Virus record (IMG/VR): IMGVR_UViG_2529293142_000011
DNA from: a virus
Taxonomy: Duplodnaviria > Heunggongvirae > Uroviricota > Caudoviricetes
Length of the DNA stretch: 23,222 nt
Reading direction: 5' to 3' (one strand)
Position numbers: made by a program. This document shows positions 9,001-12,000 of this stretch, one piece after another. Every line of letters starts with the position of its first letter. The stretch's first letter is position 1.

Positions 9001-12000
9001 CGGGAGAAATTCGATGTCGATTAAACATTACGATGTTGTCAGGGCGGCGTCGCCGTCAGACCTTGCGGAAAAGCTGACACACAAACTGAAAGAGGGCTGG
9101 CAGCCATACGGCGGACCGGTTGCCATTACGCCGTACACACTGATGCAGGCGATGGCTATTGAAGGAGAGCCACAGGTCGGCCCTTCATCTGAGCCGGATT
9201 GGTACTACGTCATCGTACTGGCCGGGCAGTCCAATGCCATGGCTTACGGTGAAGGGCTTCCGCTGCCGGATTCATACGATGCTCCGGATCCGCGCATTAA
9301 ACAGCTGGCGCGCCGCAGTACAGTGACGCCGGGCGGGGCTGCCTGCAGATATAACGATATTATTCCGGCTGACCACTGTCTGCATGATGTGCAGGATATG
9401 AGTACGCTGAATCATCCGAGGGCTGACCTGAGCAAAGGGCAGTACGACTGTGTCGGTCAGGGTTTACATATTGCCAAAAAACTGCTCCCGTATATCCCGA
9501 ATAACGCGGGGATCCTGCTGGTACCATGCTGTCGTGGTGGTTCGGCATTTACCCAGGGCGCGGAGGGGACATTCAGCGAGTCCACGGGGGCCAGTCAGGA
9601 TTCGGCACGCTGGGGGGTGGGCAAGCCGTTATATCAGGATCTGATTTCCCGCACAAAAGCGGCATTGCAGAAAAATCCCAAAAACGTTCTGCTGGCCGTC
9701 TGCTGGATGCAGGGTGAGTTTGACATGAGCGCCGCCACCCACGCACAGCAACCTGCGCTGTTTACAGCCATGCTGACACAGTTTCGTGCTGACCTCTCCG
9801 TGTTTAACGCGCAGTGCCATGGTGGCAGTGCTGCAGATGTGCCGTGGGTTTGTGGTGACACGACGTATTACTGGAAAAATACATACGCTACCCAGTACGA
9901 CACCGTGTACGGCGGGTATAAAAACAGGGAGAGTGAGGGCGTTTATTTTGTGCCCTTCATGACAGATGGTAACGGCGTCAATACCGCCACTAACGCGCCG
10001 GCAGAAGATCCGGATATTCCGGCATCAGGATATTACGGTGCGGCATCGAGAACGAATGGAAACCAGGTATCATCAAACCGCCCGACACATTTCAGTTCAT
10101 GGGCGCGCAGGAGCATTATTCCGGATCGTCTGGCAACCGCTATTCTGAACGCAGCCGGGCGCACCTCAGCCTTCATCAGTGGTAAGGCACCGGAAATCAA
10201 ACCCTCGCCCGGCGGCAACACGCCATCGGGTCCGTCTGCAGATACGTCCGTTCGCACAATCTCCCTGCTGCCGGCAGCCGGAGAGGCTGCTGCGCAGGGC
10301 TGGAGCATTAAGGATGGCGGAATTCAGTTGTCAGATGGTGTATTTAAGATCACCAAGCAGAGCAATAAAACCTGGTCCCTGACGCATCCGGTGGATGACG
10401 CAATTACCCTGCTGACACAGGGCGGCAGACTGACCTGTAAGTTCCGCCTGTCAGGCGCACTGACCAACAATCAGTTCGGGCTGGGGATTTATCTGTATAC
10501 GGATGCTCCCGTTCCTGATGGTGTGGCGATGACGGGTACCGGTAATCCGTTCCTGATGTCGTACTTCACTCAGACCACTGACGGCAGAGTGAATCTGATG
10601 CATCACAGGAAAGCCGGAAACACGAAGCTGGGGGAGTTCGGCGATTACGGTAACGACTGGCAGACGCTGGAGCTGGTGTTCACCGCCGGCAGTGCCACGG
10701 TTACTCCGAAACTGAATGGAGTGGCTGGCCCGGCATTCCAGGTTATAAAAGACAGTCTGACACTGGGACTGAATGCGCTGACGCTGACGGATGTTACAAA
10801 AAATGCAGCGTATGGCGTTGAGATAGAAAGTCTGATGCTGGAGATAAATGCACCGGCAGCATAATAAAAAAAGCCAGCGACTGACCTGAAAAAGAAGACG
10901 CTGGCTAAAAGGCCTTATATGTTTGTAGAGACTTATTTTTCACAGACAGCAATGATGCCTGTCAATATATTATCAATATGCGGATTGTTTCAGTTACAGA
11001 TGCCTTATTAAGGAAAAAACAGCCAGCACTGACTTTCGGTGGAGAGGTGCTGGCTCAAAAGGATAGATGTACTTCACATGTTGCTTCTATATGGCAGTAC
11101 ATTTTCTGACAGACAGTGACGGATGTTGTCAAGATATTGTGTCATTTATAACCTGAATCAGGGGAGGCCGGAATGTTATCTGGCATTTTTAGCAGAGCCT
11201 GAATGCCATAATCACGGCTCCCGGCGTTGGCCGTCAGTGGGTGACACTGGCGGCTTTTTTGTTTTTCTTTACTTTCATTTTCTGTCGGCGGTGACGGAGA
11301 CATACATCAGATGGAAAAAATCACAACAGGTGTGTCATACACCACGTCAGCGGTGGGGACGGGATACTGGTTACTGCAGCTGCTGGACAAAGTCTCTCCG
11401 TCCCAGTGGGTGGCAATAGGTGTGCTGGGAAGTCTGCTGTTTGGCCTGCTGACGTATCTGACAAATCTTTATTTCAAGATTAAAGAAGATAAGCGTAAGG
11501 CTGCGAGAGGTGAATAATGTCGCCGTCATTACGCAAGGCTGTTGCAGCTGCTATTGGTGGTGGGGCTGTTGCCATAGCGTCTGTGCTCATCACTGGTCCA
11601 GGTGGTAACGATGGTCTGGAAGGTGTCAGCTACATACCATACAAAGATATCGTTGGCGTATGGACTGTATGTCACGGACACACCGGAAAAGACATCATGC
11701 CCGGTAAAACGTATACCGAAGCAGAATGCAAAGCCCTCCTGAATAAAGACCTTGCCACGGTCGCCAGACAAATTAACCCGTACATCAACGTCGATATACC
11801 GGAAACAACGCGCGGCGCTCTTTACTCGTTCGTTTACAACGTGGGCGCTGGCAATTTCAGAACATCGACGCTTCTTCGCAAAATAAACCAGGGCGATATC
11901 AAAAGCGCATGTGATCAGCTACGGCGCTGGACATACGCTGGCGGTAAGCAATGGAAAGGGCTGATGACTCGCCGCGAGATTGAGCGTGAAGTCTGTTTGT

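Follow-up and report, generated by a model that had tools for sequence, protein, structure and literature searches.

A NanS-p-type sialate O-acetylesterase gene in the putative late operon of a phage-434-like lambdoid prophage

Does a large sialate O-acetylesterase gene lying just before the holin gene mark a phage as a relative of the Shiga-toxin (Stx) phages, even where stx is absent? The question is raised by a stretch of 23,222 nucleotides (the window) of the Caudoviricetes record IMGVR_UViG_2529293142_000011. An earlier note on this DNA had called the gene characteristic of Stx phages, the element an stx-negative relative of these phages, and the gene a metabolic moron. I performed a computational analysis of the gene, its neighbours and its homologues. 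Judging from the sequence comparisons, it is very probable that the gene encodes a NanS-p-type 9-O-acetyl sialate esterase and that a phage-434-like lambdoid prophage carries it in its late operon as an accessory gene that is not essential. The gene and the enzymology of its product were already on record, as were copies in non-Stx prophages and in phage 434. The features of the region are as follows, the promoters and terminators being consensus matches only.

6856..7545, plus strand: antiterminator Q of the late genes, Q82-like (PF06323), unrelated to the Q of H-19B and 933W
7529..7612, plus strand: pR′-like promoter (7529-7557) and tR′-like intrinsic terminator (7591-7612), directly after Q (consensus scan)
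7729..8472, plus strand: multi-pass membrane protein of 247 aa in AT-rich sequence, also listed as PF27470 TfpB
8558..8716, plus strand: DUF3927/TciB-like small membrane protein of 52 aa
8726..8930, plus strand: STnc100-like sRNA candidate (Rfam, sub-threshold), ending in a strong intrinsic terminator (8901-8919)
9014..10864, plus strand: nanS-p, three-domain sialate O-acetylesterase of 616 aa, two nucleotides different from phage 434 CPT_434_71 (V47M, G145D)
9023..9157, plus strand: N-terminal DUF1737 domain (aa 4-48), short-loop variant (Pfam and alignment)
9191..10150, plus strand: SASA/SGNH catalytic domain (aa 60-379; PDB match, alignment and block definitions)
10274..10852, plus strand: C-terminal DUF6645 domain, a lectin-like jelly-roll (aa 421-613) homologous to 6yp6 (Pfam and PDB match)
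11311..11517, plus strand: holin S, a P21-type class II pinholin, the 3′ limit of the 2.5-kb cassette common to Stx1 phages
11517..12448, plus strand: SAR endolysin R (11517-12014) and spanin Rz (12011-12448), forming the lysis cassette together with S

The ORF at 9014..10864 on the plus strand is intact, starts with ATG and encodes 616 aa, exactly as had been described. In Pfam the protein matches DUF1737 (aa 4-48, E=1.9e-14), SASA (aa 66-262, E=6e-13) and DUF6645 (aa 467-577, E=5e-18), each above its gathering cut-off; the domain search that the earlier note had proposed for DUF1737 and SASA/SGNH therefore returned both. A phmmer search of the PDB matched NanS/YjhS 3pt5 over aa 60-379 (E=1.3e-121) and the NanS-p C-terminal domain 6yp6 over aa 421-613 (E=1.1e-29). 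PHROG 143 is matched over the full length, and no NCBIfam model matches the protein. The order of domains, DUF1737, SASA and a lectin-like C-terminus of the kind described in PMC8065619, is that of NanS-p.

Using the catalytic-block definitions for 3PT5 given in reviews of SGNH enzymes (PMC10792757 and PMC9487903), with the catalytic residues also taken from PMC10017367, which cites mutagenesis of the NanS Ser and His, it was found that the four SASA blocks are all present: GQSNA (aa 71, with the nucleophile Ser73) as block I, RGGSAF (aa 174) as block II, MQGEFD (aa 232) as block III and THFS (aa 358, with His359) as block V. They are invariant in the alignment of the window, 434, Stx1, ST131 and 933W proteins with NanS. 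The active site thus has Ser73 within GQSN, Gln72 and QGE as the oxyanion network, and His359, while the Asp of block V is missing, as it is in E. coli NanS. On architecture, homology and catalytic blocks, the gene is judged to be a real, intact NanS-p-type sialic-acid O-acetylesterase, and the identification made in the earlier note holds. Since its SASA domain is 97.8% identical in amino acids to that of the Stx1-phage allele, and since all tested prophage NanS-p alleles of EDL933 and O104:H4, some of them from non-Stx prophages, are reviewed as active and as supporting growth on Neu5,9Ac2 (PMC8065619; PMC10462455), the protein is predicted to hydrolyse the 9-O-acetyl groups of Neu5,9Ac2 and of mucin sialoglycans. 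The G145D change of this allele counts against the prediction.

The catalytic domain of the chromosomal NanS of E. coli (YjhS, 3PT5) shares 57.6% identity with the window esterase across 316 aa; blocks I to III and the block V His are the same in both. In contrast to the window esterase, NanS has one domain only, is encoded in the nanCMS operon, lacks DUF1737 and DUF6645, and is not phage-borne. Most E. coli already carry chromosomal nanS, and thus the host benefit of a phage copy is not obvious.

To which phage does the gene belong? Positions 341..12259 and 13223..13796 of the window are 99.1-99.6% identical to the right arm of phage 434 (cII-O-P-nin-Q-lysis-cos), whose sequence and annotation were published by Feiss et al. 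2022 (PMC9119081). The 434 gene CPT_434_71 (UMO75335.1, "SASA family carbohydrate esterase", GenBank OL657226) has the same length as the window gene and is identical at 1849 of its 1851 bases (99.9%), the two proteins differing by V47M and G145D. LpxR, YlcG, the Q82-like Q, the membrane protein, the TciB-like protein, the esterase, the pinholin, the SAR endolysin and the spanins are common to both. Such near-identity is what is expected of a 434-like lambdoid prophage. The head genes are not of the 434 type; they are phage-21-like (93-95% to phage 21 and PhiR12-type phages, against 66-75% to 434) while still being of the lambda D/E type. At 12598-13215 the window carries a Rha-family regulator in place of the Iss/Bor-like lipoprotein of 434, and it also differs by an IS3-family element upstream of cII. 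In phage 434B the whole region around the esterase gene was replaced with DLP12 sequence and the phage still grows (PMC9119081). Thus, nanS-p is non-essential, and 434 and 434B form a ready isogenic pair with and without the esterase.

The window copy might instead be a decaying gene of a defective prophage. The Gly at residue 145 is found in the 434, Stx1, ST131 and 933W NanS-p proteins and in NanS, so that G145D hits an otherwise invariant position; in the 434-like arm, each of the seven coding substitutions against 434 and L003 is nonsynonymous; an IS adjoins cII; and gene E, for the major capsid protein, has a frameshift at 20617. However, the 616-codon ORF is open with every catalytic block in place, G145 falls outside all four blocks, and the exact protein is retained in at least two other assemblies, whose contigs differ from the window by homopolymer-length indels only. 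Since only homopolymer lengths differ, the loss of frame in E (A6 to A5) most likely reflects an undercall in the assembly. I consider decay very unlikely. The E frameshift, the paired indels in Z and the homopolymer indels were dismissed as signs of decay, as two independent assemblies of the same lineage match every substitution and lack the undercalls. An artefactual origin of V47M and G145D was likewise ruled out by the exact protein in at least two other NCBI assemblies.

Is the 434-like prophage then also a relative of the Stx phages? The absence of stx was confirmed: tblastn of the window with Stx1A/B and Stx2A/B gave a best match of only E=0.045 over 28 aa. ARAGORN found no tRNA genes in the window, again in agreement with the earlier note. 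Neither an stxAB operon nor a remnant of one lies between Q and nanS-p; sensitive blastn (word size 7), with the stretches between Q and nanS in H-19B and 933W as queries, returned matches of at most 37 nt. The slot that holds stx in Stx phages is filled in the window by the two membrane-protein genes (7729..8472 and 8558..8716) and the sRNA-like element.

Close alleles are found in Stx1 phages (H-19B, and Stx1a phages such as Stx1_14040, where the gene is annotated yjhS), in which the segment from nanS-p to S has 95-96% DNA identity to the window. The C-terminal domain of their esterase is 99% identical in amino acids, and its DUF1737 has the short loop too. Unlike the window, these phages have stx1AB directly upstream, and their Q, replication genes and capsid (PF05065 with S78 protease) are unrelated. 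The homology amounts to one mosaic nanS-p–holin cassette of 2.5 kb (9001..11516), bordered by the ribosome-binding site and start codon of the esterase on the 5′ side and by the end of S on the 3′ side; the Q gene and the upstream cargo of the window have no relation to those of Stx1 phages. The prototype NanS-p proteins, 933W L0105/Z1466 and phi24B vb_24B_21 (gp84), resemble the window protein in having all three domains and the catalytic blocks, and their genes likewise lie between Q and S. Their identity to it is lower (70% in SASA, 56% in DUF1737 and 36% in the C-terminal domain), and the anchor loop and linker of their DUF1737 are longer. Unlike the window, 933W and phi24B are podoviruses with a PF13252 capsid, and have stx2 and three tRNA genes upstream.

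Altogether 3.0 kb of the 23.2 kb are shared with Stx1_14040 and 2.2 kb with 933W (10–13% of the window), and kinship in Q type, replication or morphogenesis genes was not found beyond the nanS-p cassette. In the synteny comparison with 933W that the earlier note had proposed, the Q–S slot is common to both, Q is unrelated and the shared sequence amounts to 2.2 kb. Likewise, of the "stx-negative relative of Stx phages", the missing stx stands while the kinship was overstated: this is a 434-like prophage with cassette-only homology, a Q of another family and no scar of an stx deletion. Nor is the esterase characteristic of Stx phages. It has been recorded in non-Stx prophages (PMC10462455; PMC8065619), and of 5426 complete E. 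coli genomes, 1830 (about a third) have nanS-p homologues, ST131 included; nanS-p loci in complete E. coli genomes number roughly 7,400. Given this prevalence and the near-identical copy in 434, there is nothing unusual in finding nanS-p where Shiga toxin genes are absent. The gene does not mark descent from an Stx phage; together with the holin gene it moves as a 2.5-kb cassette among lambdoid phages whose Q genes, cargo and capsids are unrelated.

When would the esterase be made? The gene sits between Q (6856-7545) and S (11311-11517) in the lambdoid late region, where NanS-p genes are expected. The P21-type holin, followed by the endolysin and Rz, bears out the pre-holin position given in the earlier note; Stx phages have the gene in this Q-to-S slot too. 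The late transcript with nanS-p presumably starts at the pR′-like site beside Q, and in phage 434 a terminator is annotated at the place of the tR′-like terminator of the window. Predicted terminators lie along the operon at ~7600, ~8910 and 11170-11255; the terminator-bearing end of the sRNA candidate is 84 nt upstream of the nanS-p start. In an Rfam search of 5000-14500 (E<=1), this sub-threshold STnc100-like match was accompanied only by two weak matches that are probably due to chance. For an own promoter of nanS-p, the consensus scan stayed at chance level (7 sites found, 7.3 expected), with no promoter-like site between the 8901-8919 terminator and the start codon. Lacking its own promoter and placed behind terminators, nanS-p looks like a Q-dependent late gene, whose product would be freed at lysis rather than made in the lysogen.

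The metabolic moron of the earlier note implies the opposite, namely that uninduced lysogens make the esterase and the host grows on mucin-derived O-acetylated sialic acids. It is known that the growth advantage of EDL933 and O104:H4 on Neu5,9Ac2 depends on nanS-p alleles, some of which belong to non-Stx prophages (PMC8065619; PMC10462455), and the viability of 434B agrees with an accessory gene. Against expression in the lysogen stand the promoterless gap behind the terminator, the location within a Q-dependent operon, and published nanS-p expression, which depends on induction (PMC8065619; PMC10462455) and rises by 1 to 2.4 logs on mitomycin C (PMC10462455). Furthermore, a signal peptide or hydrophobic segment was looked for at the N-terminus of the esterase and none was found; DUF1737 occupies the spot where NanS would have its export signal, so that a periplasmic or external substrate would be out of reach without lysis. 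A benefit at the population level fits a late gene as well, through spontaneous induction. The accessory status can be kept from the moron idea, but expression by the lysogen is doubtful.

In the preferred reading of a late, lysis-released gene, the missing promoter, the late-operon placement and the missing signal peptide together mean that release would require induction and lysis. Upon prophage induction, Q-modified RNA polymerase starting from pR′ would pass the three terminator regions and place the esterase and the lysis genes on one transcript. Lysis by the pinholin and SAR endolysin would then set the cytoplasmic esterase free. Outside, the lectin-like C-terminal domain may target sialoglycans, and the SASA domain may strip 9-O-acetyl groups off free and mucin-bound sialic acids. 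The de-O-acetylated sialic acids would then become usable by sialidases and the NanT/Nan pathway of surviving sibling lysogens. A fraction of the esterase may remain attached to the virion.

Could virion attachment be the main role of the enzyme? A recent preprint (10.64898/2026.04.10.717836) reports that a DUF1737 hexamer of phi24B gp84 binds the central hexons of a T=9 capsid, and that gp84 is later self-processed at SSP-containing linkers. By analogy, DUF1737 would anchor the window esterase on capsid hexons, giving a particle that modifies mucus or glycans to the benefit of the phage and not of the lysogen. The gp84 anchor itself (10.64898/2026.04.10.717836) speaks for this idea, as do the DUF1737 core of the window protein, nearly identical to 933W L0105 over aa 1-33, a GPSSEP linker, and a Tyr (Y41) close to where the "tooth" Tyr42 lies. 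However, the loop of the anchor is shorter by 3 aa and has another sequence, with Tyr41 in a different context, and the capsids of the window and 434 are of the lambda type (E, PF03864, with decoration protein D), as against PF13252 in 933W and phi24B. Lambda capsids are T=7 and have no facet-centred hexon. The window encodes no 933W/phi24B-type major capsid protein for a T=9 capsid with such a hexon, the sole site reported for gp84. The same short-loop allele (95-96% DNA identity) occurs in Stx1_14040 with a further capsid family (PF05065 fused to the S78 protease), which argues against co-variation of the domain with the capsid, and 434B is viable without the esterase gene (PMC9119081). A virion-borne enzyme is thus unlikely here. 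Co-variation of DUF1737 variants with capsid families was tried as a criterion and set aside, as the short-loop variant accompanies two capsid families and four phages are too few for statistics.

A broader version, in which DUF1737 is a general hexon-binding anchor and 434 and its many prophage relatives with lambda-type capsids display the esterase on their heads, seems quite unlikely. If it were true, nanS-p would be a structural accessory for mucus interaction that moves between unrelated capsid modules with the lysis cassette, and not a metabolic gene of the lysogen. The 434/434B pair could serve to test the capsid-anchor claim.

In the window prophage, the IS3-family element adjoins cII at 340/341 and replaces the cII ribosome-binding site. 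As a point against the preferred reading, the insertion may have uncoupled the early-right operon, and hence Q, from PR. This IS–cII junction was found in 0 of the 5426 complete E. coli genomes and had no exact match among species-representative genomes. At least 80% of the window is present in 104 complete E. coli genomes.

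As the earlier note had proposed, a gene for a prophage-borne sialate O-acetylesterase of the NanS-p type lies at 9014-10864 (+). Its ORF starts with ATG and encodes 616 aa, with three Pfam domains above the gathering cut-off and four catalytic blocks at the following positions of the protein.

aa 4-48, DUF1737
aa 66-262, SASA
aa 467-577, DUF6645
aa 71, block I, GQSNA, with Ser73
aa 174, block II, RGGSAF
aa 232, block III, MQGEFD
aa 358, block V, THFS, with His359

In a sequence search of the PDB, aa 60-379 matched the chromosomal E. coli esterase NanS/YjhS (3pt5, E=1.3e-121) and aa 421-613 matched 6yp6, the solved NanS-p C-terminal domain (E=1.1e-29). 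PHROG 143 covers the full length, while NCBIfam has no model for the protein. The four blocks of NanS (3PT5) are 17-GQSNA, 120-RGGSAF, 178-MQGEFD, and SHFS-303 (structural survey, PMC10792757), and its Ser and His have been verified by mutagenesis (PMC10017367). In SASA enzymes, a Gln beside the Ser makes an inverted oxyanion hole positioned by the (H)QGE motif, and the block V Asp is missing from NanS (SGNH review, PMC9487903). The block positions are unvarying in the classical lambdoid phage 434, one Stx1 phage, an ST131 prophage, the Stx phage 933W, and NanS. Thus, the alignment revealed all four SGNH blocks; a lack of the catalytic residues was one of the findings that the earlier note had named as counting against its assignment.

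The surroundings of the gene are as follows.

5419-6381 (-), LpxR-family outer-membrane lipid A 3'-O-deacylase
7729-8472 (+), multi-pass membrane protein of 247 aa (PHROG 1521, no assigned function; PF27470 'TfpB' in a precomputed table)
8558-8716 (+), DUF3927/TciB-like protein of 52 aa (PHROG 1470, 'inhibition of cell division or resistance to colicin')
11311-11517, P21-type holin (pinholin S), 3' of the esterase
11517-12014, lysozyme (SAR endolysin), 3' of the holin
ending at 12448, Rz, 3' of the lysozyme

ARAGORN found no tRNA gene in the window, and tblastn with Stx1A/B and Stx2A/B gave no significant match (best E=0.045 over 28 aa). Sensitive blastn of the Q-to-nanS intervals of H-19B (another Stx phage) and 933W against the window gave no match longer than 37 nt. 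The pre-holin position without stx or tRNA genes was therefore described correctly, as judged from the ORF, its domains, the lysis genes, and these negative searches. The slot held by stx in Stx phages is taken by the gene pair at 7729-8472 and 8558-8716, whose sequence is AT-rich (36-38% GC versus 56% for nanS-p). The lpxR gene, also AT-rich, on the opposite strand, and found in 434 too, is flanked by a truncated lambda-type Q fragment and a Q82-like Q, the latter described as functional; it resembles a classic moron and is likely to be a lysogenic-conversion gene. At 8726-8930 (+), the Rfam model STnc100, a gammaproteobacterial sRNA, matched over its whole length (41.4 bits, E=2e-6; below the gathering score of 47). 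A strong intrinsic terminator (8901-8919) closes the match, which also overlaps a small ORF (8772-8960) annotated as a membrane protein in 434. This candidate could be a prophage sRNA directly 5' of nanS-p.

It was found that the esterase gene is identical at 1849 of 1851 positions to CPT_434_71 of Escherichia phage 434 (OL657226), annotated as 'SASA family carbohydrate esterase'. With about 99% identity, positions 341-12259 and 13223-13796 align to the right arm of 434 as far as cos. The gene order is also that of 434: cII, O, P, ren, ninB, dam, ninE/F/G/I, lambda-Q fragment, lpxR (minus strand), ylcG, Q82-like Q, the 247-aa membrane protein, DUF3927/TciB-like, esterase, pinholin, SAR endolysin, and spanins. 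The sole gap in this arm is 12260-13222, where the window has a gene for a Rha-family regulator/antirepressor (12598-13215, PHROG 518), in place of the minus-strand Iss/Bor-like lipoprotein gene of 434. Beyond cos lie lambda-type packaging and head genes (Nu1, A, W, B, C, D, E, FI, FII, Z, and U), which are 93-95% identical to phage-21-type phages but just 66-75% to 434. Thus, judging from these alignments, the window is a prophage or circular form in which the right arm is 434-like and the heads are 21-like. At least 80% of the window is present in 104 complete E. coli genomes, at 99.2-99.6% identity. In the variant 434B, DLP12 sequence has taken the place of a stretch of about 5.5 kb in which Q, the late promoter, and the lysis region lie (PMC9119081), and the GenBank record of 434 marks the esterase inside the 434/434B non-homology region. 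Since 434B is viable without it, the esterase is an accessory gene.

Is the element a Stx phage that has lost stx? The homology of H-19B and the Stx1a phage Stx1_14040 is limited to a stretch from 9001/9021 to 11516/11520 (95-96%), that is, a cassette from the esterase ribosome-binding site to the last S codon. No sequence 5' of it is shared with either phage; in that region, both carry stx1AB and a short Q of another type, and 933W carries Q, three tRNAs, and stx2AB. The total overlap with the 23.2-kb window is 3.0 kb for a Stx1 phage and 2.2 kb for 933W. The element is therefore a 434-like phage that has a single mosaic cassette, nanS-p–S, in common with Stx1 phages, rather than a Stx phage that lost stx. 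The earlier note had called it a stx-negative relative of Stx phages; its observation is confirmed, and its interpretation finds partial support. Nor is the absence of stx remarkable: nanS-p genes with activity and growth benefit are on record in non-Stx prophages (PMC10462455; PMC8065619), and nanS-p without stx is the common case. Of 5426 complete E. coli genomes, 1830 carry homologues (median 2, maximum 15 copies per genome), and the window esterase is an already known, widespread NanS-p, in essence the 434 allele. An E. coli O25b:H4-ST131 prophage (NZ_CP051615.1, 10738-17213) also has the full Stx-phage-like late layout without stx, in the order Q, DNA methyltransferase, tRNA-Ile, tRNA-Arg, DUF3927, IraM, SASA esterase, and holin; Stx phages are thus not alone in having this layout.

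Overlapping the 3' end of Q lies a promoter-like site (7529-7557), and next comes an intrinsic terminator (7591-7612), where one is annotated in 434 as well; this is the usual pR'/tR' layout. Promoter-like sites occur in the region at chance frequency (7 found versus 7.3 expected), and none was found in 8930-9013, before the esterase. The terminator at 8901-8919 lies 95 nt 5' of the esterase start codon, and two more (11167-11184 and 11229-11255) lie 5' of S. The esterase has no hydrophobic N-terminal segment, because DUF1737 occupies the N-terminus. Transcription would be late and Q-dependent, and the protein is probably cytoplasmic and freed on lysis; its SASA domain is predicted to de-O-acetylate sialoglycans, to which the lectin-like C-terminal domain would target it. 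Such a mode of expression would agree with the literature, in which nanS-p expression depends on induction (PMC8065619; PMC10462455).

According to a 2026 preprint (10.64898/2026.04.10.717836), gp84 of the Stx phage phi24B is a NanS-p homologue on a T=9 capsid; its DUF1737 hexamer fills the facet-centred hexon, with Tyr42 serving as a 'tooth', and cleavage at SSP-containing linkers then frees the enzyme. The window esterase has the DUF1737 core and a GPSSEP linker; its anchor loop, with Tyr41, is shorter by 3 aa. The window and 434 both have the lambda capsid protein E (PF03864) together with decoration protein D, while 933W has PF13252. The short-loop allele is also carried by a Stx1 phage whose capsid protein, PF05065, is fused to an S78 protease; thus, a single DUF1737 variant accompanies at least two capsid families. 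The lambda capsid is T=7, a lattice without a facet-centred hexon, and capsid decoration in the 434-like phage is therefore possible but unlikely. 434 and 434B offer a clean pair for testing it.

The window begins with the terminal part of an IS3-family element (1-340), encoding the OrfA N-terminus with HTH_Tnp_1 on the minus strand (255 to 1). The junction (340/341) lies 10 bp 5' of the cII ATG, and the cII ribosome-binding site is replaced. It was found in two NCBI draft assemblies carrying the identical esterase, in none of the 5426 complete E. coli genomes, and in none of the species-representative genomes. The insertion could separate the early-right operon, hence Q and the esterase, from PR (also cro and nutR) in this strain.

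Indels of one base were found at ten positions: 5424, 6396, 6655, 7609, 8724, 11013, 20617, 21990, 22013, and 23196. Nearly all of them are undercalls in runs of A or T. That at 20617 (A6 to A5) splits the major capsid gene E (20117-21144) into two ORFs by a frameshift, and the -1/+1 pair at 21990 and 22013 rewrites aa 19-25 of Z. Pseudogenisation was considered and rejected, as those within the span of two same-lineage assemblies are missing from both. At all substituted positions these draft contigs agree with the window, the sole differences being in homopolymer lengths; therefore, the indels are most likely assembly undercalls. The lineage-specific substitutions are genuine. Relative to 434 and the closest complete-genome prophage, the 434-like arm (341-13796) has seven coding substitutions, all common to the two other assemblies: O K59R, Dam A175T, Q L208F, DUF3927 G49E, NanS-p V47M and G145D, and Rz S89F. 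Residue 145, outside the catalytic blocks, is Gly in all homologues compared, including NanS, and at least two NCBI assemblies contain the identical esterase protein. All seven substitutions are nonsynonymous and six are G:C to A:T, an odd pattern (n=7) pointing to relaxed selection or mutational bias in the lineage.
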